A stretch of 64,000 bases of DNA from Escherichia coli (GCF_041248615.1 NZ_CP158426.1); one strand, 5' to 3'; positions 47,438-60,115 are shown, counted from the stretch's first letter. Translations and numbers: made by a program. Notes: generated by a model from the sequence alone, not told the origin.

Positions 47438-47809
47438 AGTGGCGAAACAAAAGATAATAAAAGGCCCGACCGTGAAACTCACATGCCTGAAATCGGCGGC
47501 GGAGAAACAGAGGATCGGGCTCGGTTGCCTGTAACTCTATCCGAAGTTATCCACATGTCAATGCACAGTTACTTAGGAAACTAACATAGATACTATCATC
47601 ACTCACGAAAAACCACTATATGTGGTTTTTATTCATATTGTTATCCACTACAGGCTGTGTCAATAACTTTTACCTATTAATTGGGTAATTTCTACATTTT
47701 CCTATGCTGGCTAGTTTCTCTACTGAAAAGTTGGCACTCCTTAATCGCTTTTCGGTTAATACTATCGGTCTTCATATTGCCAGCAGCATACGCCATCCGA
47801 TAATTTCTA

Positions 47810-48200
47810 TGCTACGCGCGCGTACTTGTCGCAAAATATCAGGCAAAGGCCAGATTCAGAACGTCGTGATAACCACCAGCACAACATGAGATGTCATGTA
47901 ACGCGATTTATCACACCAGATACATGTGATTGGTGTACCCGCATAAAACATCGTCATAGCGCGTCCTGTGCGCATATACGCCGATAATCAACACATCACC
48001 ACCACTCTGTCTTATGTAGAGAACAGTTTTATGGTGCTCCCCGCCATCGTGTGCGTACTGGTCGGACGTAGTTGCAAAATTTTTTGCAACTGATACCCCT
48101 CGCGCGCGTACTGGTCACGAAATTGGTGTTTTGCTGTGGCAGTGATATCAGAAAAATCTTCCTGTTTCACATAAAGCGGATATGCGCGTACTGTAACGGC
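47810..48200. promoter_or_regulatory. repeat-rich divergent control region between the Abi-like gene and the secreted-protein gene
   Basis: Four copies of GCGYGTACTKGT (about 47817, 48050, 48103, 48184) and a 10-bp-arm inverted repeat AGTTGCAAAA-TT-TTTTGCAACT at 48070-48091; no credible ORF. Confidence 0.45.
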
Positions 48201-48307
48201 CCCATCAACTGGGAGCGGATTTGAAATCCCGACCCAAGCTATGTACCAAATGCCATGTCTTGGATATATGATGATTGCCATTCTAAACAACGCTAAAGGG
48301 AGGGTTG

Positions 48308-48770: not shown

Positions 48771-50876
48771 TTATTGAGCTTCCTTTTGCGATGCTTGTGC
48801 TGCTGTGGTCAGTGATTGTGTGACCGTACTGATCGCTCTGTCATATGCTGTGCTACCTTTTGGCGTATTTGCCAGACGTAACAAGGCATTTCGTATAACA
48901 GGGCTTTCGTATGCCTTCGCTGCTCCGCCTACGGCACCAGCAGCAGGAACAACAAACGCAGCCGTTTTTAGCATCCCCGCTAATACTGCTGCGTTTATGA
49001 TGCCACCACCAACTAACAATCCATAAAGCTGCTGACCATTTAAGTTTTGAACGTTCGCTTTTGCCGCGTGTCTTGTATCGTTGAGGTATTTAATAACGCC
49101 GTCCAGTTCCTTTCCATGTACGCCTTTAAAGAAAGTTGCTGATTGCTTCCTGTTCCGGTGTAACGCATTAATAAACTTCTCAACACTGATATTTCCAGAC
49201 GGATCAGTCGCCTTATCTACAGCATTCTGAACTATAGCTGCTCGTGCGTTTTGCCTACCATTGTCATCCAGAAGCCTGTAAAGCTGAGAACGTTCTGATG
49301 GGCTTTGGCTAAAAACGAGTTTTGTTACATCCTCAGGCGTGGCCTTGCCGCTGGCTATTGCCTTTTGAACGCGCGTTCTTCCCATCATGTCATTGAATTT
49401 AGACCATGAGCGATCAACCCTTGCCATATTAATGGCTTCGTCTGCTCCAAGATTTTTGGCTACGGCTTTTTTCATATCCGCCGTATATGCCTTGTAGATA
49501 ATATCGCTGGCTTTCTGGAGCGTATCTTTATCAACAGTGTCAGATGACGCCATAAATCGCTTTCGAAGATCGGTTCTGTTTTCCCTCGCCAGACGCAGGT
49601 CATTTGGTCCGCTGGTGATATCGTCTTTAAATTGCTGCAAGACTTTTACCGCGGCTCTATCCTGAGATTTGCCCGGGCGGCTTAACACGGCAATCTGATT
49701 GTCGATAGCTTTTACCGTGTTTGAGAGATCGACAGGGGTATCCCCCATAGCGTCAATTATGCGGTTATATCGCTTTCCTGCTGCCTCAATGAATTTTTGT
49801 TGCCCTTTAGTCGCAGATTCATAAAGCTGTTTATCAGAAATGCCACCCAGACCATCGCTAAATGTTCTGACTAAATTTTCTCGTGCTTGTTGTTGATTCA
49901 GCCGATTCTTACCGGTTCCAAAAAAAGGAACTCTTTCGCCTAATGTCTGAGCCTGACTCTGCATAAAGGTTTTATCTTTCAACATGTCACTGGTCATTAA
50001 CGGCAGATTTCTTTCCGATGCAAAGTCGACAGCAGCCTTTGCTTCAGGCGACATATCACCACGAACAGCCCTCGAAACCGCACTCGCTGTATTTTCCAGC
50101 CCCTTACCAATACCACCAATGCCAGCAGAAATTACCGTTTGTAACGGATCAATATCTTCTCCACCAGCAAGGCTGGTGGCTCCCTGTAGTGCTAAATCTG
50201 TAGCTGCTGATTTCCCTATGGCCCCCAGCACCGTTCCGGCCCTGCCCGCTGGTGTAAACGCCAGCGCATTAGCCAGAAACGATGCCACGTCTTGCGGCGA
50301 TAAACCCGGCTTGTTCAGAGCATAATCACCGGATGGCAGGGAAACGATAGTGTTACCCTTCTCATCCTGCCTTAATTTCGCTCCCATGCTCTGAAGAATC
50401 TTTTCCTGAGATGCGTCAGAGCCGAAAAGTTGAGACCATCGAGCTTTTAGAGCATCCATGCTGAGTGAGGTTAACTCTGGGGCAAGGTCGACATTTTGCA
50501 GTCTCTCCATCTCTGGAGTCATTCGGCTTTCGCCTGTTATAGCATCGCGCATCGCAGCCCCAAGACTGGCTCCCTGTTCTGCTGAACGCTCAAGCCCCTC
50601 TCTTTGCTGAGTAGCTAACTTTGCATACCCTGACGCAAGAGAATTATCAGATGATGTATGTTGAATATTTTGAGTTGCTGATTGGTATCGGTCTATTTCA
50701 TTCGTTGATGGTAGTGGATAGGCAGCATAAAAAGCCTGCTTAGCCTGCTCTACACTTTCTCCGGCTTGCGGGGCAACGACTTCATTAAAGTATTGCTCCT
50801 GAGCCTGCGCTTTTTGTTCTGGTGCTAACGCCTGATACTGTGGAGAGGCGATAACATCTTTCCATGCTTTAGCCAT
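48771..50876 (-). CDS. large alpha-helical protein, possibly a P22 gp16-like ejection/internal virion protein
   Basis: 701 aa, A/Q/K-rich; its ATG overlaps the upstream stop (TAATG). Identified by size and order only, not by recalled sequence identity. Confidence 0.4.
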   Translation of the reverse strand: MAKAWKDVIASPQYQALAPEQKAQAQEQYFNEVVAPQAGESVEQAKQAFYAAYPLPSTNEIDRYQSATQNIQHTSSDNSLASGYAKLATQQREGLERSAEQGASLGAAMRDAITGESRMTPEMERLQNVDLAPELTSLSMDALKARWSQLFGSDASQEKILQSMGAKLRQDEKGNTIVSLPSGDYALNKPGLSPQDVASFLANALAFTPAGRAGTVLGAIGKSAATDLALQGATSLAGGEDIDPLQTVISAGIGGIGKGLENTASAVSRAVRGDMSPEAKAAVDFASERNLPLMTSDMLKDKTFMQSQAQTLGERVPFFGTGKNRLNQQQARENLVRTFSDGLGGISDKQLYESATKGQQKFIEAAGKRYNRIIDAMGDTPVDLSNTVKAIDNQIAVLSRPGKSQDRAAVKVLQQFKDDITSGPNDLRLARENRTDLRKRFMASSDTVDKDTLQKASDIIYKAYTADMKKAVAKNLGADEAINMARVDRSWSKFNDMMGRTRVQKAIASGKATPEDVTKLVFSQSPSERSQLYRLLDDNGRQNARAAIVQNAVDKATDPSGNISVEKFINALHRNRKQSATFFKGVHGKELDGVIKYLNDTRHAAKANVQNLNGQQLYGLLVGGGIINAAVLAGMLKTAAFVVPAAGAVGGAAKAYESPVIRNALLRLANTPKGSTAYDRAISTVTQSLTTAAQASQKEAQ

Positions 50877-52297
50877 TAATCACCCCATAGTGAAGAAAAG
50901 TTACTGCTGGCTGCTGGCTGTGATACCTGCTCAGATTGCGGCAATGTCTGCGACGAAGAAGCAGTTCCTCTGTCAACTGCTGAAATAACCCGCAAAGCAT
51001 CATAAGTTCGACCAGAAGCAGCTTTCAGCGAATTGAACTGGTTTTCCATCTTCCGGCGCTTGGTATCAATGGTTTTTGTGGAGTCGCCAGGCTGAGGGAA
51101 ATACATTTGATAATATTTTGACATTTCAGCAGGTGCGATAGCTGCCCCTGTTTCCTGACGGAGTATTGCCATTATTGCGTCATTAGCATTAACAACGTAT
51201 TGCTGCTCTGCTGGGCTGAGCGTTAAGTTAGCCAGCGTCCCATTACCCAAAGCATTATTAATGATCGCCACTCGCTGTGGGCTAAGCTGGTCTTTCAGTG
51301 TATCTATTGAATCAAGAGCATCCCTAACCCTGTATGCAAATCCAGCAGCTTTTTTAGCCCCATCTGGCGACTTTTCCATGATCTTTTGGGCTGTTGGCAA
51401 AGCTATTGGACGAAACCCATCTCCAGATATTGGCTGGTTTAGTTTTCCCTGCTCTTCACTTCCGTCTGTGTAGTATTTTGTGACAGTGCCATCATCGTTT
51501 TCTCTAACACTCATTAATTTTTTGGCGTTTGTATTAATTCCAGCCGCTGCCGCAAATGCCGCCGCCCCCTCTGGATCCGCCTTTAACATTTGAGCGTACT
51601 GATTGTAATTCTGCATTGCTGCTGTTGGTGCATATGCTGACGTTAACGCATTTGCTCGGTTAATATCCTGCCCTCTCGCCTGAAGTGCTTCGCTGGCCTG
51701 ATTGCTGCGGATTGTCTCTGCCAACTTGCCACGTTCAATATCCCGACCTTCCATTTGATCTTTGATATCGAAATACTTCTCATGACCGAGAGAAAACAGT
51801 GCCATACTACCAGCAAGCCGCTGGAATCCCTGTGGATCATTAACATGCATTTCGGCAACAGACTCAGGAGAAATTCCCAGGCGACGCATTTCATCTTCGT
51901 TATCTGCTATGAATTTTCCAAATGCCCCAGTTCCGAGCGAAGATGCGATTTGAGCACTAGTCGCAAGATGACCAATAGAATTTCTCTGGTCGTCATCAAT
52001 AAAGCCCATCCCTTTCTGAACGCTTTCAAATTCTTCTGGATACTCAGAAATAAGACTGCGCATTTTGTTTCTGTCTCCAGACTCAAAAGCCCCGGCATAT
52101 GCTTTCTGAAACTCTGCTTTACGCTGTTGTTGACGTGCCTGCTGATTAATCTCAGCAACGCCTCTTAGCCCCTGTAGCGCCATTAAACCTACGTTTGGCT
52201 GCTGCTGATACTGCACAGGCTGAGGAACGGAAGAACGAGGAGCATTATCATTTTGCGGTGCCATGCTAGGCAGCCCGCCAAGTTGCCATGTCGCCAT
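50876..52297 (-). CDS. possible P22 gp20-like ejection protein
   Basis: 473 aa (P22 gp20 is about 471 aa as I recall); TAATG coupling at both ends; Q/A-rich N-terminus. Confidence 0.4.
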   Translation of the reverse strand: MATWQLGGLPSMAPQNDNAPRSSVPQPVQYQQQPNVGLMALQGLRGVAEINQQARQQQRKAEFQKAYAGAFESGDRNKMRSLISEYPEEFESVQKGMGFIDDDQRNSIGHLATSAQIASSLGTGAFGKFIADNEDEMRRLGISPESVAEMHVNDPQGFQRLAGSMALFSLGHEKYFDIKDQMEGRDIERGKLAETIRSNQASEALQARGQDINRANALTSAYAPTAAMQNYNQYAQMLKADPEGAAAFAAAAGINTNAKKLMSVRENDDGTVTKYYTDGSEEQGKLNQPISGDGFRPIALPTAQKIMEKSPDGAKKAAGFAYRVRDALDSIDTLKDQLSPQRVAIINNALGNGTLANLTLSPAEQQYVVNANDAIMAILRQETGAAIAPAEMSKYYQMYFPQPGDSTKTIDTKRRKMENQFNSLKAASGRTYDALRVISAVDRGTASSSQTLPQSEQVSQPAASSNFSSLWGD

Positions 52298-52974
52298 TAG
52301 AATCCAAGCCCCCCAACAAGACCAATAAGCCCACCACCAATAGCGCCGGCCGCAGTTCCTATTCCAGGAACAACGGAACCAAGTTGCGCACCCGCTAAAG
52401 CGCCTGATGCTGCCCCACCAATACCACGCGCAAGACTGGATGGCTGCTGCGCCTGACCTGCACGAATAGCGCCAAGCCCCTGCAAGAGTTGTCCGGTATT
52501 ATTGGCGTAGTTTTGCCCTGCCGTTGCCTGCCCTGATGCCGCATTCATCCCGACATTTAGCAGGTTTCCATAATTTTGCATTTGCCCACTAAGCCAATTG
52601 TTATAAAGCATGGGCGCAATGGAAGATAACTGGTTACTGGTAGCTGTTGAGCCAAGCCCCCCGGTAGCTTCTGCTGAGACAAGGTTCTGATAACGGGCCT
52701 GATCTGCCTGTGTTTTATATAAACCAGAACCAAAGAAATCATTCGCGGCTTTATTCTGCCCTTCCAGAGTCATCAGTCCTTGTAGTTGTTGTAAAGCAGG
52801 CAATCCGACTTCTGCATACGGCTTGAGATTATTCATCACCGTATTCCACTGCTCGCGCTGCAAATCAATTGCCTGCTGCTGGGCCTTCGCCTGAGCTTTA
52901 GAGGCACCACCATCACCGCCTTTTTCGTATACGGCACGATTGAGATGTTTATGAGCTATATGGGTAATTAACAT
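52297..52974 (-). CDS. possible P22 gp7-like ejection protein with Gly-zipper C-terminus
   Basis: 225 aa (P22 gp7 about 229 aa); C-terminal Gly-rich hydrophobic segment GIGGAASGALAGAQLGSVVPGIGTAAGAIGGGLIGLVGGLGF suggests membrane insertion. Confidence 0.4.
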   Translation of the reverse strand: MLITHIAHKHLNRAVYEKGGDGGASKAQAKAQQQAIDLQREQWNTVMNNLKPYAEVGLPALQQLQGLMTLEGQNKAANDFFGSGLYKTQADQARYQNLVSAEATGGLGSTATSNQLSSIAPMLYNNWLSGQMQNYGNLLNVGMNAASGQATAGQNYANNTGQLLQGLGAIRAGQAQQPSSLARGIGGAASGALAGAQLGSVVPGIGTAAGAIGGGLIGLVGGLGF

Positions 52975-53429
52975 TCGCTGAATTCCTTATATTGTTGCCG
53001 AGTTAACTGATAAAGCGTTACGCCGACGGGTTTACCACATCTGATATAAGCATCATCAAGGTGACCAACACGGGTAGCGCCAAGCAAACGGATAATTGCC
53101 CGTCCGTATTTCGTGGTGTCAGGAACCATAGTGATGCTGTTAAGGAATGGTGAGTTTTCGAGAAGCCATTTGCAGAATAATCGATGCCCTTGCAGTGCAT
53201 ATTCACCACGGAATCCGGGGTCGTACACCGCATGGCATTCAACAATGCTATGCCAGAAGTTACGCACTTCATGAACGCCAGCCAGCACCAATCCTTCGTA
53301 GATGCCGAGATATACCGCATCAGGCTTGATGTAGTACGTGTGCCCCGGCTCAACAATATTTTCGGTATTGCCAGGATCGTTAAGAAAGGCCTGTAATCGC
53401 ACAGGGTTATCAATAAATTTTAGTTCCAT
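52968..53429 (-). CDS. hypothetical protein, first large gene of the operon (gp14-like by position)
   Basis: 153 aa, ATG start, 7-bp overlap with the next gene. Confidence 0.35.
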   Translation of the reverse strand: MELKFIDNPVRLQAFLNDPGNTENIVEPGHTYYIKPDAVYLGIYEGLVLAGVHEVRNFWHSIVECHAVYDPGFRGEYALQGHRLFCKWLLENSPFLNSITMVPDTTKYGRAIIRLLGATRVGHLDDAYIRCGKPVGVTLYQLTRQQYKEFSEC

Positions 53430-53445
53430 GCGATGCCATCCATTT

Positions 53446-53607
53446 TCACATACAGCCTGCCAGCGCCTTATCTATTAACCCTCGAGCAATTTCATGCAGA
53501 GTTGGCGCTACTCCAATTCCTGATTTTTTACGCTGCTCTTCCTGAATTTTCTTTATCGCTTCCATTTGCTTCTCACTTATCAATACCGGCTTTACTGAAA
53601 TAGCCAT
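53446..53607 (-). CDS. small ORF (53 aa) heading the operon
   Basis: Below the 60-aa track cut-off; ATG at 53607 preceded by AGGGGG; MAISVKPVLISEKQMEAIKKIQEEQRKKSGIGVAPTLHEIARGLIDKALAGCM; 16 bp upstream of the next gene. Confidence 0.35.
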   Translation of the reverse strand: MAISVKPVLISEKQMEAIKKIQEEQRKKSGIGVAPTLHEIARGLIDKALAGCM

Positions 53608-53620
53608 AACGCCCCCTTAG

Positions 53621-53640
53621 AACTGTATAAAACAACAGTT
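53621..53640 (-). promoter_or_regulatory. LexA-box-like palindrome upstream of the operon
   Basis: AACTGTATAAAACAACAGTT = CTGT-N8-ACAG with perfect AACTGT/ACAGTT arms, 14 bp upstream of the small ORF start. Confidence 0.45.
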
Positions 53641-53747
53641 ATTATAGTTTCACAAATCGCAATATTCATCATCGTAATTGCAAAATATGAAACAGATAGC
53701 ACAAAAAAATGCCACCGCTCAGTAGCTGGTGGCATCGTTCTGTGTGT

Positions 53748-53775
53748 CAGGTTTTGACAGGTTTTTTATGGACTC
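53748..53775 (+). terminator. hairpin plus T-run (plus-strand terminator-like) followed by conserved ATGGACTC motif
   Basis: CTGTCAGGTTTTGACAG then GTTTTTTATGGACTCTAAAAACT; a near-identical tail follows the hairpin at 59577-59606. Confidence 0.4.
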
Positions 53776-54053
53776 TAAAAACTATATTTATGGTGTCGCA
53801 TTACCCTTCACGGCAGGCGCTTTTCAGTTCTGCCCTTGCTTCTGGCTCCATTGGTAATTTGATTCGCGATCAGCTATGCGGATGGTTTGCTGAACAGGCA
53901 TAACAACTTCTCAGTGGCTGTTTTCTGAACTACGAAAATTTCGTAGTGCTCACTTTCAAAAACGTCACGCCCTTGTACACAGGATTTTACGAAAGTCTCG
54001 TAAAACACTCTCTGATGCCAGCCAGGTGTTGTGCGCATCAATTCAGTCACATT

Positions 54054-54169
54054 GTGTTGGTTCAAAATACCGTGTTGTTGGTTCAGTGTTGGTTCAATAA
54101 AAAGAATAAAATCCTTATAAAACAATACTCTTTACAAATTGAACCAACTGAACCAACTGAACCAACACC
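54054..54169. repeat. iteron cluster B, the inverted counterpart of cluster A
   Basis: GTTGGTTCA x3 then TGAACCAAC x3; 54130-54169 (CTTTACAAATTGAACCAACTGAACCAACTGAACCAACACC) is the exact reverse complement of 45764-45803; lies 22 bp past the primase-helicase stop. Confidence 0.8.
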
Positions 54170-54191
54170 TTTTCTACGCACATGAAGAAGC

Positions 54192-56948
54192 TCATTCTTC
54201 AGATGAGTTATAATCTCCTGGCTGGTAATTGAGTACATAAACGTTTATTTGTCGTCCCTGAATACGTGGTGATTTTCTTTGGTATCCACGACCGCTGTTT
54301 GGTGGGGTTAGCATCCCGGCTTTTTTCAACACTTCAGCAAACTGTTTTGCGTTGAAACCACATGCGATCTCCTTTTCAAATGTGGCCGGGAATGTGTAGA
54401 AAATCATTGGGCTTTCGTCATGTTCTCCACGCTGACGGTATCCGGCTAAATCTTTGATGGGCAAATCTGCCGGGCTGTATGGAAATGGTGCAAAACGGCT
54501 AAGCCCATAGGCATTAAGAAATGCCTCCGTTTGTTCAATAATCTGCTGATGCTCTTTGTTACCTGTGCCGAACTCGCGCAACCATGCGTTATAGCTGTGC
54601 TGTATCGCATCACGGCATGTCTGAGCATCCCAGCCTGTTACAACCTCGCCTAACAACAATGCGGCCTCCAGAATGGCAAATCGCGCGGCTACACGGTGAA
54701 CCTGCTCACCATAATCGGATGGGATCAGGCTTCTCCATCTGCTTTCGCAGTCACGAACGGTTTTAATAGCCTGTTGCTGGTGGTCTGCCAGCCATTTAAT
54801 CCACTCACGCCCGGACGCGCCGTGGTGATGCTGGTAAGCGTCTTTCAGTGCGTCTGCGTGCTGTTTTCCGTTCTGGTAATCGTGAAAGCGTACTGCTTTA
54901 CTCAACGGAATATTCAGCAGTCGCACCAGTTGCCCGGCTTTGGTTTTTCGCCCGGAAGTAGCGATAAATGTTTCTAAATCCATTTCTCCGGTGCTGATTG
55001 CCACTGTACGCCAGCGTTTTAGATCCCGGTTTCCACCATCTTTAGCGCCTTGCAGTTTCCCTACACCGTTAAATAACGCATAGGCAGACTGTGAAACGCT
55101 GACAGGATCAGCGCCCTGACCAACTTCATCAAGCGGCATTAGTCCGTCATTGTGGGCGGCGGCCTCATTTGCCAGCCCCAGCGCGGTTCCGTACCACGTC
55201 AGCCGCAGTAAATCAGGGTTGCCGTATAAGCTGCTCGCCACGTTTGCCGTGGTGGTCTTACCTGCGCTCGACTGCTCATAGAAATGAATGCCGAACCCGT
55301 CAGCGCCCACCAGCCCAATCAATGGCGCTGCCAGTGCTGCGCCGATCCCGGTCATCATTGAATAGTTACCAAAGGCCAGACGCGCCACGTTATCACGCCA
55401 GCTTTTCGCGCTCCCTGAGACGGTATATCCGGCTGCGGCTGAGCTTCTCCCGCTGAACAGCACAGGATTTTCAGGTGTTCCGATGATTTCCCCATCAGGC
55501 ATGATGTACGCTCCGCATTGCCAGCCAGTGGCATGAGCAACACGCCACAATTCACGAGAGCCACTGCGTTGTAGCCAGTCTGCCAGTATTGCTCTGAGGC
55601 TGCTTTTGGTCGTGACATTTACCCCACCAGCTTTAAGTGTGCGCCATCCTTCACGTTCACCAATATCAGCCAGTGGAATGGCAGCGGTTGTCGGCGTTTC
55701 AGAACCAAACGACAGCCAGCGAAGAATGAGATACTGGTCTTTATCGTCTCTGCCAGTACCGATAACGCTTAACGGAGAACATAACCAGCTTTCGTTATTG
55801 ATGATTTCTCCACTCTGGCTGTCAGCTCTCGGAGATACCCAATAAATACCATCCTCGCGGCTTTCTATTCTTGGTTTCAGTGGATCGGTATCCATAACCT
55901 TAAAATCGCTTCCCTCAATGGTCTGTGGCTCCTGTTTCACGCCATTACCCTGTGGTTGGTACATTGACTTATTGAACGCTTCTGTGGCGCATTTAATGCC
56001 GTGTTTTTGGTGGTAATCATTCCAGTCTGCTTTGTGATCTGTCGGGGGTAATGCCACCCATCCAGAAACAGATAAAGCTGCTTTTTCTGCTGCTATTCTC
56101 CCCGTGTTTTGTCTTCCTTCGCTGTGGTCGTTATCCGCAGCAATGATGATTTGTGCTGAAGGAAATTTATCCCGCAGTACCTGGGCGACATATAACAGGT
56201 TCCCGGCATCAATCGCCGCCACTGTCAGCGCCTCTGGACGAATTAAATGGGCAGATAATGCCGTTGCCAGCCCTTCTGCGATTAAGATGCTCTGTGTTGT
56301 TTCTGGTGCGTTTATGGCGTGATATGCCCCCCGCTTTGCTGAACCTGTCAGGAGTCTTTTTTCACCATGTGAGGTAATAGTCTGTGCTGCTGTGACTGCG
56401 CCGGATTTATCCACCAGCGCCAGCAACAGAGATCCATCGGGCAACACGGGGAATGTAAAATCACCTACCCCTTTCGCAACCAGATAATCAGATTTGCCGT
56501 TTACAGCCTTTCTGCGCATGTCATCAAACTGACGGGAAAACGTATCCCGTCTTTGTTGTTCGTCCTTCTCTGCCCTTTTCAGGCGCTCCTGTTCGCGTCG
56601 CTGGCGCTCGGTTTCCAGTTGTTCCCGTTTCTGGCTGGTGGCTTCTGGTGTTTCCGTTGTCCGGTAATCAATACCCAGAACATCAGCGGCAAGAAGCGCC
56701 GCCTCTGTTGTGTCGCAGTTATTTACGCGTTTAATTAAATCCAGCCCATCACCAGCGCCGCACTGATTACAGATGAAGCTACCGCGCCCGTTGTCATCGA
56801 ACCGGAATCGATCTTTGCCCCCACATGCAGGGCAGGGAGCATGACGGCGCGGAGAGTCAGGGACATTTATGTTCAGGCAGCCCAGCACATGAGGCCAGTT
56901 GTTTTCAGACGCACTGATAACCTGACGGATAAGATCAATGTTTCGCAT
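54192..56948 (-). CDS. primase/helicase of the integrative element (zinc-ribbon + TOPRIM + P-loop NTPase)
   Basis: About 918 aa from ATG at 56948; CPACGGKDRF…CNQCG zinc ribbon, TOPRIM-like IIIAADNDHSEGRQ, Walker A YEQSSAGKTT; iterons directly downstream. Confidence 0.8.
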   Translation of the reverse strand: MRNIDLIRQVISASENNWPHVLGCLNINVPDSPRRHAPCPACGGKDRFRFDDNGRGSFICNQCGAGDGLDLIKRVNNCDTTEAALLAADVLGIDYRTTETPEATSQKREQLETERQRREQERLKRAEKDEQQRRDTFSRQFDDMRRKAVNGKSDYLVAKGVGDFTFPVLPDGSLLLALVDKSGAVTAAQTITSHGEKRLLTGSAKRGAYHAINAPETTQSILIAEGLATALSAHLIRPEALTVAAIDAGNLLYVAQVLRDKFPSAQIIIAADNDHSEGRQNTGRIAAEKAALSVSGWVALPPTDHKADWNDYHQKHGIKCATEAFNKSMYQPQGNGVKQEPQTIEGSDFKVMDTDPLKPRIESREDGIYWVSPRADSQSGEIINNESWLCSPLSVIGTGRDDKDQYLILRWLSFGSETPTTAAIPLADIGEREGWRTLKAGGVNVTTKSSLRAILADWLQRSGSRELWRVAHATGWQCGAYIMPDGEIIGTPENPVLFSGRSSAAAGYTVSGSAKSWRDNVARLAFGNYSMMTGIGAALAAPLIGLVGADGFGIHFYEQSSAGKTTTANVASSLYGNPDLLRLTWYGTALGLANEAAAHNDGLMPLDEVGQGADPVSVSQSAYALFNGVGKLQGAKDGGNRDLKRWRTVAISTGEMDLETFIATSGRKTKAGQLVRLLNIPLSKAVRFHDYQNGKQHADALKDAYQHHHGASGREWIKWLADHQQQAIKTVRDCESRWRSLIPSDYGEQVHRVAARFAILEAALLLGEVVTGWDAQTCRDAIQHSYNAWLREFGTGNKEHQQIIEQTEAFLNAYGLSRFAPFPYSPADLPIKDLAGYRQRGEHDESPMIFYTFPATFEKEIACGFNAKQFAEVLKKAGMLTPPNSGRGYQRKSPRIQGRQINVYVLNYQPGDYNSSEE

Positions 56949-57306
56949 CACCGTACCCCACGTGGTCTATAGCGTTTGCGATATGGCTAACCAGCATCTG
57001 CCACTTGGTTATTCCGTAATCAGTCAGCATGCCATCATTGTTTAGCCACATATCAAATTCAGCGGTTGTCGCAAGTTTCCACTTATCGCCGTGGACAGTC
57101 CTCATTGCTGGGTACATGAATGCGCAAATCAGATCACAAACATCTGACGGCTTCAGAGATGTAGTAATGGTGCGTCCCTCTGGCGTCTGAATTGCCATTT
57201 TCTCTTCACCAGTAGAATGAAGGTTATGAATCCACACAGCACCAGCAATCTTTGCCACCTGCTCTCCGATTGCGGAGCTAAGCGCCATTTCTGCATTTTC
57301 ACGCAT
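56935..57306 (-). CDS. hypothetical small protein
   Basis: 123-aa ORF overlapping the primase start and the upstream ORF end. Confidence 0.4.
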   Translation of the reverse strand: MRENAEMALSSAIGEQVAKIAGAVWIHNLHSTGEEKMAIQTPEGRTITTSLKPSDVCDLICAFMYPAMRTVHGDKWKLATTAEFDMWLNNDGMLTDYGITKWQMLVSHIANAIDHVGYGDAKH

Positions 57307-57640
57307 GAGAACCTCCCGCTACAGTTGCGCCCATGTCATTAACCATGCTTTGCCATATCTCACGCCCGACGTCAGTCAATCCGTCCTTAGTGACGCAACG
57401 CTCAAGAAGCTCGATCCCCACGGTTTCCCACTGCGGGTAGAACACTTTCATGGCTGCCAGTGTGTAGCTATCGATCAGGCTGCGAACGCCTTTTACTCCA
57501 TTGACGATTTCCACACGTACGGCCTCGCCGTCCGCATCAACCATGAAATAGTCCCCGCCGCTGGTGGAGGTAATGTGGTTATACAGTGCCGACGCATACT
57601 TATTTGCCAGCGCATTCAGTCGGAAATTTTTAGTAATCAT
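57299..57640 (-). CDS. hypothetical small protein
   Basis: 113-aa ORF in the same overlapping chain. Confidence 0.4.
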   Translation of the reverse strand: MITKNFRLNALANKYASALYNHITSTSGGDYFMVDADGEAVRVEIVNGVKGVRSLIDSYTLAAMKVFYPQWETVGIELLERCVTKDGLTDVGREIWQSMVNDMGATVAGGSHA

Positions 57641-57650
57641 GGCTCCATCC

Positions 57651-58253
57651 TCAGTGCGTCACTGGTTCCGCTGGCATGCCGTTTTCATTCAGTTCAGCTA
57701 TAAAGCTGTTGTGAAGTTCAGCAAGCGTTTCACGACCAAATGGAGTCAGTGCTCCTTGTTCCACATCCATCATGGCTCTGTAGAAAATGATGGCGCGTTC
57801 TGTGCCAGACTCGATGCCAAAACGTTCTATCATCGCGCCCTCAATGTTGTTTGCCATAGCGAGGCGCTCTGCTACTGGATACAGCGGCATGGCGACGATG
57901 CCGTTGGAATAAACAGCCACTTCGGAAGGATTGCCAGTATCATCAATGATGCTGACAGTGCCGTTTTCCTCTCTCATTTCCAGCATGAATACTGTTGCGA
58001 TCAGCCATCTCCACATAATGACGTTATGCTGTGATGTGTAATCGAAATATCCCTGGTTGCCGCCATCGGCTATAGCGAGATGTATTGACATGCCTTCATC
58101 TGGTTTATCGTCATAATCCCCGGCATCCAGACGATTTACGGCATCAATATATGAGACGGTCTCAACGCGTTCTGTCATGCCATCGTTGCTGCGGTGCATG
58201 ATGTTTACGCCGTCAGGCGTTGCTTCTGCATGGAAGGTTAAGAAATTATTCAT
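57651..58253 (-). CDS. hypothetical protein
   Basis: About 200 aa from the internal ATG (MNNFLTFHAEATPDGV…), whose start overlaps the stop of the upstream ORF; the longer 235-aa frame is probably an over-extension. Confidence 0.4.
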   Translation of the reverse strand: MNNFLTFHAEATPDGVNIMHRSNDGMTERVETVSYIDAVNRLDAGDYDDKPDEGMSIHLAIADGGNQGYFDYTSQHNVIMWRWLIATVFMLEMREENGTVSIIDDTGNPSEVAVYSNGIVAMPLYPVAERLAMANNIEGAMIERFGIESGTERAIIFYRAMMDVEQGALTPFGRETLAELHNSFIAELNENGMPAEPVTH

Positions 58254-58467
58254 GTTTCGCCTCGCCTGAATGATTCTGTAACTCATATTTGCCCAACAAT
58301 TCGTCCGCTTCCTGAATAGCTTCTGGTACGCCATTGAGCAGTGACATAACCGCGCCAATCATTAACTTGTCTCTGTTGCTGGGGCTGGCCCCTTCAAGCC
58401 AGAACCCTAAAACAGTCTGAACCTGTTCGATGCGACATTGCGCTTCAATGAGCTGGATGTTGGTCAT
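58246..58467 (-). CDS. hypothetical small protein
   Basis: 73 aa; overlaps both neighbours. Confidence 0.4.
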   Translation of the reverse strand: MTNIQLIEAQCRIEQVQTVLGFWLEGASPSNRDKLMIGAVMSLLNGVPEAIQEADELLGKYELQNHSGEAKHE

Positions 58468-58727
58468 TTCGCACTCTCCACATCGATTAAACTGATATCT
58501 ATCAGGGAGGTAACTTTTTGTAGCCAGCTATTGATTACTGTCGCCTGCTCCCCTCCCACCGAGGGAATAATCTCATTCATCACATGAACCAGACCTGTGC
58601 GCGCTCTGGTAAGCCGTTCAGTCGCGCAATCTGCGGGAGTGAATGTGTCTGGATATGGCTCTTCACTCCCCAGCAATGATTCAATTTCCAGCTCACACGG
58701 ATGACGATAAATTAAGTTGATATTCAT
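58464..58727 (-). CDS. hypothetical small protein
   Basis: 87 aa; 4-bp overlaps. Confidence 0.4.
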   Translation of the reverse strand: MNINLIYRHPCELEIESLLGSEEPYPDTFTPADCATERLTRARTGLVHVMNEIIPSVGGEQATVINSWLQKVTSLIDISLIDVESAK

Positions 58728-58918
58728 TTTTCACCCCCAAGAATTACCAGCTCTGCACGGGCATCGTTAACCAAAGATGAGCACGCTTTAATCGCATCCA
58801 CGACATCAGTAGCGTCCATTTCTTCAGCCGAAAGACTGACAGCAACCAGGACAGCCGCTGCTTGCTCGATTAATTGAAGTGCGGACGTAAGGCGAGGGGT
58901 ATTAATTGAGTTATTCAT
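58724..58918 (-). CDS. hypothetical small protein
   Basis: 64 aa; 4-bp overlaps. Confidence 0.35.
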   Translation of the reverse strand: MNNSINTPRLTSALQLIEQAAAVLVAVSLSAEEMDATDVVDAIKACSSLVNDARAELVILGGEK

Positions 58919-59126
58919 TGGTTGCCCCCGTTTTTACTGGCATTTCGCCACCTTCCAGCAGGAAATGAACGTCACGAACGGCGAGATCCAATATCGCGAG
59001 TAACGCCTTCAGTTTTTCGTCTCGTGAGGGAGAGTTGCTCACCAGAATGTCATTAATCACTTCTGTCAGTGTGATGATCTGGCTTGTGCGTTCGAGGGGG
59101 TCCATATGCACATCGTAGGTTTTAAT
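58911..59126 (-). CDS. hypothetical small protein (C-terminal part of the tracked 342-aa ORF)
   Basis: Internal ATG gives MIKTYDVHMDPLERTSQIITLTEVINDILVS…, a plausible 71-aa protein; the upstream part of the long frame looks like out-of-frame translation of a structured GC-rich region. Confidence 0.35.
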   Translation of the reverse strand: MKTYDVHMDPLERTSQIITLTEVINDILVSNSPSRDEKLKALLAILDLAVRDVHFLLEGGEMPVKTGATNE

Positions 59127-59329
59127 CATGTGCCACCTCCATGCGGATACGACCAGCAAAAAAGCAGACGTGATCGCGCACCAGAGAACGGCGAGCATCG
59201 CGTTCAGACTCGGCAGCAATATGATGAATTTTGGCGGTAATTGTCGGGCAATCGCGGCGAACTGCGGCGATAATCCAGATAAATTGCGGTTTTTGGGTAG
59301 GGGTAGTAGCCAGCATGTGGCAGCCTCCT

Positions 59330-59610
59330 TGATTGATGGTTTATAGCCACCGCCGGAGGTCCTAAGCTCGCTGGCGGTGGACTGTACAGGGTTAGGACTA
59401 CTGGCAATCAAGGAAACCAGCCTGACCGAAGTCAGCCCCATACAGCCCACCATTGATAAGGTGTGCGTGTGCGCCGATACAAAAAAAGACGCTGGCGCGT
59501 CATGTATCGCCTCGATTGCCTGCGGGGTCCTAATCCCGGCACCCGTTTTATGAGGTGCCTTATAACCATAAACCGTGTTGCCGCATAACGGCAAGCTCTT
59601 TTTTATGGAC
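59330..59610 (+). ncRNA. candidate structured RNA / immunity-type region (C4- or P4 CI-like antisense RNA?), ending in a plus-strand terminator
   Basis: GC-rich segment with hairpins (CCACCGCC…GGCGGTGG), two copies of GGTCCTAA, long-range complement CCTTGATTG/CAATCAAGG, and a hairpin plus T-run at 59577-59606; sits inside an otherwise minus-strand gene chain. Confidence 0.3.
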
Positions 59611-59932
59611 TCCGAAAACTCACTATTGGAAGAACCAGATGCACAATACATCGCGCTCATTTCGTTAACGTCACGCGCATGGACGAAGGTTTTTGTGGAG
59701 TCACTACGCGAGAAGAGAAAGCCATCTACGACCAGAAATTCTCTGGCGCAGCCGCTGACCTTCTCAACGCTAACACCATCGACCGTAATTTCTGACATGG
59801 TTAAGGCATCCGCTCCTACCACCAGCAAATGACAAACTTTGCTTGTATCTGCTGTATTAATGCCTGACTTTGCTGTCATATTGCTGGATTTTGGCGACAT
59901 ACCAGCCAGTGAAAATATCTTCTTCTGGACGG

Positions 59933-60115
59933 TTAGCATTTGTTAACCTCCGCGAACTCCTTCATGAAGCGCGCCAGCGGTTGTACGCATGGCGATTGAT
60001 ACCCGTCGCGATAAAACGTCACTCGGTTGTGAGACACGCTTTCGACAGTAACGAGTGCTCCGTGGGCATCTTTGTAGCGTTTTTGTGGTTGTGGTATTCC
60101 TGTTGGCTTAGACAT
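59933..60115 (-). CDS. small phage protein (DUF4222-like, tentative)
   Basis: 60 aa from the internal ATG: MSKPTGIPQPQKRYKDAHGALVTVESVSHNRVTFYRDGYQSPCVQPLARFMKEFAEVNKC. Confidence 0.4.
   Translation of the reverse strand: MSKPTGIPQPQKRYKDAHGALVTVESVSHNRVTFYRDGYQSPCVQPLARFMKEFAEVNKC

Follow-up and report, generated by a model that had tools for sequence, protein, structure and literature searches.

A 19-kb element lies between dinD and yicC in the stretch of Escherichia coli DNA analyzed here (64 kb from NZ_CP158426.1, called the window throughout), and all of its genes are on the minus strand. Judging from its gene content, the element is a satellite of the phage-inducible chromosomal island (PICI) type that lacks a small terminase gene (terS) and has captured late genes of a P22-like phage. 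The locus raises one question above all: what is the function of a 22-base motif, TTTTTTATGGACTCYRAAAACT, that the satellite carries twice? A scan of the window allowing up to three mismatches returned exactly two matches, at 53762-53783 and 59599-59620, with a chance expectation of 0.00 in 100 shuffles of the window, and the pair was also recovered as repeat family D10. We found the same sequence inside the small terminase genes of CUS-3-type phages, and the comparisons below suggest that it may be a packaging signal. The two copies are as follows.

59599-59620, minus strand: motif copy 2, which reads AGTTTTCGGAGTCCATAAAAAA and with its flanks gives a 25-nt exact match to a CUS-3-type terS.
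53762-53783, minus strand: motif copy 1, which reads AGTTTTTAGAGTCCATAAAAAA; non-coding, between the origin region and the terminator of the early operon.

On the plus strand, copy 1 (TTTTTTATGGACTCTAAAAACT) and copy 2 (TTTTTTATGGACTCCGAAAACT) are identical at 20 of 22 bases, with the mismatches confined to the Y and R positions, and a comparison of the flanks revealed no homology beyond the 22 nt on either side. An earlier note on this DNA had reported a shared tail of roughly 20 bp at the two places, and the exact alignment is neither shorter nor less similar than that. Read on the minus strand, which is the gene sense, the motif is GAGTTTTNNGAGTCCATAAAAAA(G), a discrete element of ~22-24 bp. 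Copy 2 lies in frame, as EFSESIKK, inside an annotated 342-aa “ash family” open reading frame (ORF; 58911-59939, minus strand). Copy 1 sits in the 580-bp gap that runs from the TOPRIM/DUF927 primase gene (54192-56951) to a LexA-box promoter, and in the motif's own frame there are stop codons two and four codons before it. In a set of 12 unique close relatives, none of the 81 nt that contain copy 2 and the adjoining promoter (59542-59622) is variable, compared with ~15% of sites in the flanks. Copy 1 is kept in all of the compared satellites that have P22-like late genes, as diverged variants in two of them (L408 and L419; L numbers denote fetched loci).

When viral contigs were scanned for TTTATGGACTCNNAAAAC, more than 120 loci were returned. 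Most of these fall in a single gene, whose opposite strand reads GAG TTT NNN GAG TCC ATA AAA AAG, or EFxESIKK in translation. The gene encodes a 146-aa protein directly upstream of the large terminase and is the small terminase of CUS-3-type P22-like phages (phrog_309, E = 2e-68; 98-99% DNA identity to CUS-3 records). In CUS-3 itself (FN394989.1), the exact 24-mer occupies nt 142-165 of terS, so that the motif corresponds to codons 48-55 (EFSESIKK) of CUS-3-type terS. Window copy 2 and the terS of L007 share 25 consecutive identical bases and none beyond. No half-site repeats besides the motif were found inside CUS-3 terS, and a PDB search with CUS-3 TerS matched only the C-terminal tail, to Sf6 gp1, and returned no structure that bears on DNA recognition. 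We rejected the idea that the satellite copies are relics of a deleted terS gene: whatever the context, the terS homology begins and ends at the same bases.

We then compared terS genes gathered by degenerate peptide patterns (alignment A2), which avoids an ascertainment bias in codon choice; this comparison of synonymous conservation takes no account of kinship among the genes. In the 33 unique terS genes that encode the ESIK peptide, GAG-TCC-ATA-AAA is invariant in every one, while other conserved residues with several possible codons vary synonymously. Across 78 unique terS genes with a mean pairwise amino acid identity of 54%, serine is always encoded by TCC and alanine always by GCC, and the Ile/Leu/Val codons are NTA, a set of rare codons, in 97%. 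Five of the seven best-conserved third positions outside Trp codons belong to the motif (C 100%, A 97%, T 90%, G 86% and A 81%); the median third-position conservation over 140 columns of these 78 genes is 0.49. Because these synonymous sites are frozen, the data point to a function of the motif at the nucleotide level, as DNA or as RNA, inside terS. A packaging (pac) site would be expected to lie in or beside terS, and the motif does so both in CUS-3 (terS nt 142-165) and in diverse phrog_309 terS genes. It would also be expected to show nucleotide conservation beyond the needs of the protein, and such conservation was found at the motif codons only (33 and 78 unique terS, kinship ignored).

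The constraint could instead be translational. The EFxESIKK(G) motif would then act in translation of terS and of the satellite “Ash/eta-like” ORF, either by pausing at the rare ATA/NTA codons or by -1 slippage on A_AAA_AAG as in dnaX, and copy 1 and other copies outside ORFs would be relics. Consistent with this idea, a long ORF runs through the motif in frame both at copy 2 and in three diverged satellite groups, the tandem copies of L086 read IEFFESIKGK and IEFLQSIKKG, and A_AAA_AAG lies in the zero frame, with the -1 frame of CUS-3-type terS stopping at once (GGG TAA). However, many family members keep KCC-NTA-AA without a slippery run (CTA AAG, TTA AAG), A_AAA_AAG is restricted to the IKK subset, and variation of the Gly codon (GGT/GGC/GGA) means that the -1 stop is not retained across the family, a pattern unlike that of a dnaX-type frameshift. 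Exact copies also lie outside any ORF in the window, L066 and L003, and the in-frame position is weakly significant since two of three frames are open through the motif. We consider a translational role quite unlikely. An overlapping +1-frame ORF ending at an invariant TAA was also considered and rejected, as the upstream frame is open for only 2-81 codons.

Related satellites carry the motif in several settings. We collected 52 unique satellite sequences by way of their DUF4222 protein, without using the motif, and found it upstream of the isrK promoter in 27 of them; 24 of the 27 are exact at all 22 fixed positions, and the NN positions take six different values among satellite copies. In a distant satellite family (L030, L086, L090 and L096), the exact motif lies 70-190 nt upstream of an isrK-like RNA, and in one case it is there twice in tandem. 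All satellite copies are in gene-sense orientation, and window copy 1 and both L066 copies are non-coding. At the head of the late zone, the motif is present only in satellites with P22-like late genes, in three lineages (the window type, L066, and L408/L419), and nothing motif-like is found there in satellites with tape-measure or baseplate late genes. In L408 and L419 the late-zone site has diverged to AGTTTTGTAGCGCCATAAAC and AGTTTTGCAACGCCGTAAAC, with the terS-family core KCC-NTA-AA kept. The flanks occur in different combinations: with M for the motif, the order is A-M-C at window copy 1, B-M-promoter at window copy 2 and B-M-C in L003, L066 contains both A-M-other and pac-array-M-C, and L004 keeps the copy-1 neighborhood without M.

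These combinations bear on a further explanation, in which the motif is a short shared patch for the exchange of modules between phages and satellites, through homologous recombination or phage recombinases; repeated exchange would keep the patch uniform, and no specific protein would bind it. The motif is indeed where homology blocks end or change over: L003 combines a flank of the copy-1 type with one of the copy-2 type, homology with L004 is lost beside the motif site, BLAST matches H72 and H80 end at the motif, the sequence common to L408 and L419 starts only at the motif-like site, and the satellite motif is either exact or absent. Yet recombination alone leaves unexplained both the frozen synonymous sites in terS genes that are 38-68% identical and come from many hosts, and the free NN among 22 fixed positions. 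Moreover, TerS domain swaps, seen as variant C-terminal tails on a CUS-3-type N-terminus, occur near residue 118 and not at the motif, and a terminase cutting at pac would itself make such breakpoints. We judge recombination by itself to be an unlikely explanation.

We favor, tentatively and at slightly less than an even chance, the explanation that the motif is a TerS recognition (pac) core that lets a helper terminase package the satellite. Free-standing copies of the most strictly conserved stretch of terS, carried by a satellite that has no terS, would be the satellite’s packaging signal. TerS proteins of this family would recognize the motif core to start headful packaging, at a site inside the phage’s own terS as in P22. 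A satellite that carries the motif together with P22-type pac-like units could then have packaging started on its DNA by a P22-like helper of either TerS type, and DNA ends made by terminase at the motif would account for the frequent breaks in homology there. The P22-type sequences in the window are the following.

59685-59791, plus strand: a 107-bp fragment of P22-type gene 3 (small terminase), 83-96% identical to the terS of many P22-like phages, with E values down to 3e-28.
47819-48160, minus strand: a distal cluster downstream of gp16, containing a pac-like AAGATTTTTCTGATATC (48160-48144), three units of GACMAGTACGCG, and a degenerate motif-like GGAGCACCATAAAA (48040-48027).

The gene-3 fragment begins exactly at the pac consensus (GAAGGTTTTTGTGGAGTCACTACGCGAG, compared with GAAGATTTATCTGAAGTCGTTACGCGAG in the P22 sequence of L424; consensus from PMC11226127), and its aligned start reads GAAGGTTTTTGTGGAGTC against GAAGATTTATCTGAAGTC. 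That it starts at pac shows that elements of this kind keep the pieces of terS that contain pac. The fragment is antisense to all local genes and lies inside the annotated “ash family” ORF. A 15-nt sequence in the gp20-like gene, GGTTTTTGTGGAGTC at 51071-51085 (plus strand), matches the pac-like core at 59688-59702 exactly, with AAT in place of GAA just before it; the match may be due to chance (~0.1 expected). In the distal cluster, the three GACMAGTACGCG units fall within 300 bp, against 0.5 expected in the whole window. The cluster has the same layout as the L066 array and motif downstream of gp16, and blastn gave no phage match for 47780-48260. The units of the cluster recur in tandem, ~21-45 nt apart, upstream of the motif in L014, L039 and L124. 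In L004 the motif is preceded, 8 nt away, by a near-perfect P22 pac region, GGAAGATTTATTAGGGGTCGTTACGCGAG; a similar unit is present in L124, and in L066 five pac-like units in a row immediately precede the motif copy downstream of gp16. Contig-end positions were considered as a proxy for pac, judged to be biased, and left unused.

Several observations weigh against a packaging function. The terS of vB_EcoP-720R6 (L505 542-565) reads AAGTTTTCGGAGTCTATAAAAAAG, with a synonymous TCC-to-TCT change in the core. P22 gene 3, our positive control for synonymous conservation, was underpowered, as its 80 loci are 98-100% identical in protein. In the window, a P22 pseudo-pac regular expression matched at the chance rate (5 observed and 4.3 expected at up to one mismatch); the hits to this pattern were set aside, and the P22-pac evidence in the window is limited to BLAST-level gene-3 homology. 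Among the DUF4222 satellites, 25 of 52 loci have another sequence at the copy-2 site that shares only the A-tract and the -35 element, this absence is irrespective of late-gene type, and the late genes of many satellites with the motif are of tape-measure or baseplate type and not P22-like. Copy-2-type contexts are always in frame in a long “Ash” ORF, where a coding or recoding role is possible. The pac site of a CUS-3-type TerS is not described in the literature that we searched, nor did we find there a description of pac mimicry by Gram-negative PICIs, and the link from motif to packaging is one that we infer from sequence comparison.

A broader form of the packaging proposal is possible but doubtful: the motif may be the universal pac core of phrog_309, a very large TerS family of tailed phages, podophages among them, that infect many hosts. 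A whole class of PICI/P4-like satellites that lack terS would then spread by means of free-standing copies and P22-type pac-mimic arrays, using helpers of different TerS types. At the copy that abuts the promoter of the immunity RNAs, TerS binding could also tell the satellite that its helper has reached late infection. The features next to copy 2 are listed here.

59565-59604, minus strand: predicted isrK/C4 promoter, from direct reading of the sequence and homologous layouts.
59482-59558, minus strand: isrK-like RNA, a leader of the P4 seqA type with a terminator (Rfam RF01394, 63 bits, E = 1e-11).
59370-59457, minus strand: antisense immunity RNA of the C4/CI type (Rfam RF01695, 80.2 bits, E = 1.1e-14).

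The predicted promoter consists, on the minus strand, of A6GAG at 59604-59596, a -35 hexamer TTGCCG at 59594-59589, an 18-nt spacer, and a -10 hexamer TATGGT at 59570-59565, with +1 at 59558; it reads AAAAAAGAGC-TTGCCG-18 nt-TATGGT and lies 41 nt upstream of the isrK 5′ end. A homologous promoter-like layout is present upstream of c4 in the P1-like phage L126 and in all related satellites, whether or not they carry the motif. The 342-aa “ash family protein” ORF, called by the Prokaryotic Genome Annotation Pipeline (58911-59939, minus strand), spans this one promoter and the isrK and C4 RNA genes. Several PHROG “transcriptional regulator” families match its residues 106-220; these matches cover the translated RNA genes, and the families may thus be built in part on non-coding sequence.

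Might the motif be an UP element, or the site of an activator or repressor, of the isrK/C4 promoter? In one variant of this idea, the protein bound is possibly helper TerS or satellite AlpA, coupling helper infection to satellite derepression. At copy 2, the motif is centered at about -52 and its A6GAG tail, at -46 to -38, fits the proximal UP subsite, reportedly defined in 1999 by Estrem and colleagues as AAAAAARNR. The spacing of motif and promoter is the same in E. coli group-2 satellites, and the 81 nt of motif and promoter are invariant in close relatives. Only the last 9 nt of the motif fit the subsite, and the other 13-15 nt are not needed by the promoter: in half of the related satellites it is present with its A-tract while the remainder of the motif is missing, and since these motif-less loci keep the promoter, the promoter does not require the motif. 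In the other satellite family, 70-190 nt separate the motif from the isrK-like RNA downstream. No promoter lies downstream of copy 1 (by scan), of either L066 copy or of the terS copy, and the isrK/C4 loci of Shiga toxin (Stx) phages and P1-like phages are without the motif. A role as such a promoter site is improbable.

The same neighborhood suggests that the minus-strand RNA of the motif could pair with C4 or isrK, as an immunity site of the seqA/seqC or a/b type of P4 and P1. The motif adjoins the immunity RNAs, and by direct reading GAGUCCAUAA resembles a single-stranded stretch of C4, AGUCCUAA. This resemblance, however, is same-sense and not complementary, copy 2 lies upstream of the predicted isrK start, and the duplex energies of motif RNA with C4 or isrK are no better than those of shuffles (fraction as good, 0.12-0.58). 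We rejected pairing as a candidate and give it almost no credence.

The earlier note had proposed that both copies are plus-strand terminators, ending two antisense RNAs with a common 3′ module, or else a conserved regulatory site on the minus strand. Its outline of the locus is confirmed by the annotation: every gene of the region is encoded on the minus strand, and the two copies stand ahead of the LexA-box operon (copy 1) and the small-ORF chain (copy 2). Its description of copy 1 is right for the tail and mistaken in the first base; the sequence is GTGTCAGGTTTTGACAGG, with TGTCA from 53745, and not CTGTCAGG at 53748, giving a correct reading of GTGTCAGG with a stem that starts at 53745. 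Hairpins are present before both tails as described, and both are weak. At copy 1 a 5-bp stem contains two GC pairs, and the 38 nt fold at -5.4 kcal/mol (z = -0.13), a value equaled by 77 of 200 shuffles. The copy 2 hairpin has a 6-bp stem (-9.9 kcal/mol, z = -1.45), and its T-run begins 4 nt past the stem. At neither copy, then, does a stable G+C-rich stem stand directly before a U-run. Two features lie near copy 1.

53703-53736, minus strand: intrinsic terminator, GATGCCACC...GGTGGCATTTTTTT (-17.9 kcal/mol, z = -4.0, none of 200 shuffles as good).
53745-53763, minus strand: the copy 1 “hairpin”, which is AACCTGTCAAAACCTGACA, a conserved direct-repeat module of the satellite family.

Terminator prediction made no plus-strand call at copy 1; the strong terminator there is the minus-strand one, and it closes the early/replication operon just before the LexA-box promoter. 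The direct-repeat module occurs as the exact pattern AACCTGWCAAAACCTGWCA in 69 of 506 fetched loci, always in sense orientation. It usually lies ~90 nt after the DUF4222 gene and is followed by a GCCAC...GTGGC hairpin; in the window, it adjoins motif copy 1 instead. The copy 2 hairpin is made up of the -35 hexamer TTGCCG and the spacer of the predicted minus-strand isrK/C4 promoter. Both hairpins are thus incidental, one belonging to a promoter and the other to a neighboring conserved module.

A T6 run does follow both hairpins, and a loose scan flagged the one at copy 2 as terminator-like. Beyond the folding results above, the hairpins are not conserved where the motif is: L003, L066, group-2 and L086-type loci keep the motif with different hairpins or none. 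An RNA terminating in the T-run would exclude the shared tail, promoter and terminator scans found no plus-strand promoter at the copies, and the plus-strand ATG within the motif opens no conserved ORF. A small ORF starting at that ATG was rejected for the same reason (its length is 18 aa in L003, 10 aa in the group-2 loci, and 7 aa where it runs antisense to terS). We regard plus-strand termination as extremely improbable. Of the note’s other suggestion, the core holds, as the site is discrete, conserved and in gene-sense orientation; its identity as a nut/put or late-promoter site gives way to evidence that favors an element of the terS gene.

The satellite itself has the four-zone organization with captured helper late genes that has been described for Gram-negative PICI satellites (PMC10111431): an integrase with an AlpA-like regulator, a Bro/immunity-RNA zone, a primase with an origin of replication, and a late zone. 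Its parts are a tyrosine integrase, an AlpA-like helix-turn-helix (HTH) regulator, an AntA/B antirepressor, DUF4222, the “Ash” ORF with isrK/C4, small ORFs, the TOPRIM primase followed by inverted sets of 9-bp iterons, a LexA-controlled 53-aa ORF, the P22-like genes gp14, gp7, gp20 and gp16, and finally an Abi gene and a PerC-family regulator.

48771-53429, minus strand: late zone, the captured P22-like virion genes gp14, gp7, gp20 and gp16 (head completion, ejection proteins), from annotation and PHROG scan.

Annotation and PHROG scans of 44.8-64 kb revealed no capsid, portal or terminase genes in the element. Its gp14 region is 97.3% identical to the Lederbergvirus vB_EcoP-720R6, the isolate closest to satellite gp14, and from this identity we infer that the island’s helper is a Lederbergvirus. 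Most of the region is present in about 350 of 5,426 complete E. coli genomes.

The iterons at 54060-54170 comprise two copies of GTTGGTTCA and three tandem copies of TGAACCAAC, the first of them imperfect, and the inverted sets flank an AT-rich stretch. This region, directly downstream of the primase stop codon, is a probable replication origin like P4 crr/ori. A LexA box, CTGTATAAAACAACAG (53623-53638), overlaps the TATAAT promoter of the 53-aa ORF (region 53446-53660, minus strand). In most related satellites (L364-L422), whatever their late genes, the late zone begins with a homologue of this ORF (50-100% identity) together with a box that contains CTGTAT, which suggests that satellite late genes are under SOS control. 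An 87-aa ORF at 58464-58727 (minus strand) is named “nicotinic acetylcholine receptor subunit beta” in RefSeq, an evident annotation artefact. The window also contains a second island, at 1-25600 next to tRNA-Sec (25487-25581), which has no connection with the motif. Besides its own integrase it carries many insertion sequence (IS) elements (IS3, IS66, IS1, IS91 fragments), an autotransporter, a TonB-dependent receptor and an “inovirus Gp2 family” gene.

If the motif is a pac core, it would provide a sequence-level pac site for a widespread terminase family, for which we found none described in the literature, and would make the starting points of generalized and lateral transduction predictable in many E. 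coli prophages. It would also mean that pac-type Gram-negative PICIs without a terminase are packaged by mimicking the signal rather than by re-targeting the enzyme. Islands of this type carry defense cargo, here the Abi gene, downstream, and the mechanism would therefore bear on how such cargo moves. Even if the pac assignment is wrong, a stretch of 12-18 nt with frozen synonymous sites across a diverse gene family would still be a functional element.

Three known systems offer points of comparison. The first is the immunity region of P4 (CI/seqA) and P1/P7 (C4): copy 2 lies directly upstream of clear C4 and isrK homologues, and inside an “Ash/eta-like” ORF as P4’s internal promoter does. The motif is nonetheless absent from P4 and from the isrK/C4 loci of Stx and P1-like phages, and it is not part of the P4/P1 immunity RNA circuit. 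The second is found in E. coli PICIs without terS, which share packaging-site sequence with their helpers (PMC10111431), as in EcCICFT073 with cos/Rpp of lambdoid helpers and in 11capE/50icd. The window satellite resembles these in lacking terS, in carrying what may be helper packaging-site sequence, and in its four-zone layout. It differs in that their cos sites extend over a few hundred bp at the island’s distal end, whereas the motif is a 22-bp core of putative pac type that occurs two or three times, in one case right beside the immunity-RNA promoter.

The third is P22 pac in gene 3, a short asymmetric sequence that lies within the coding sequence of the phage’s own terS and is recognized for the start of headful packaging; the window satellite even carries a gene-3 fragment that starts at P22 pac. 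The P22 sequence, AAGATTTATCTG, is different from the motif, GAGTTTTNNGAGTCCATAAAAAA, and P22 pac lies at about codon 90, compared with codons 48-55 for the motif. The TerS family of the motif is also a different one, phrog_309, with an N-terminal HTH predicted from PHROG matches. We accordingly liken the motif to P22 pac and to the site sharing of PICIs, and offer its membership in either class as a proposal.

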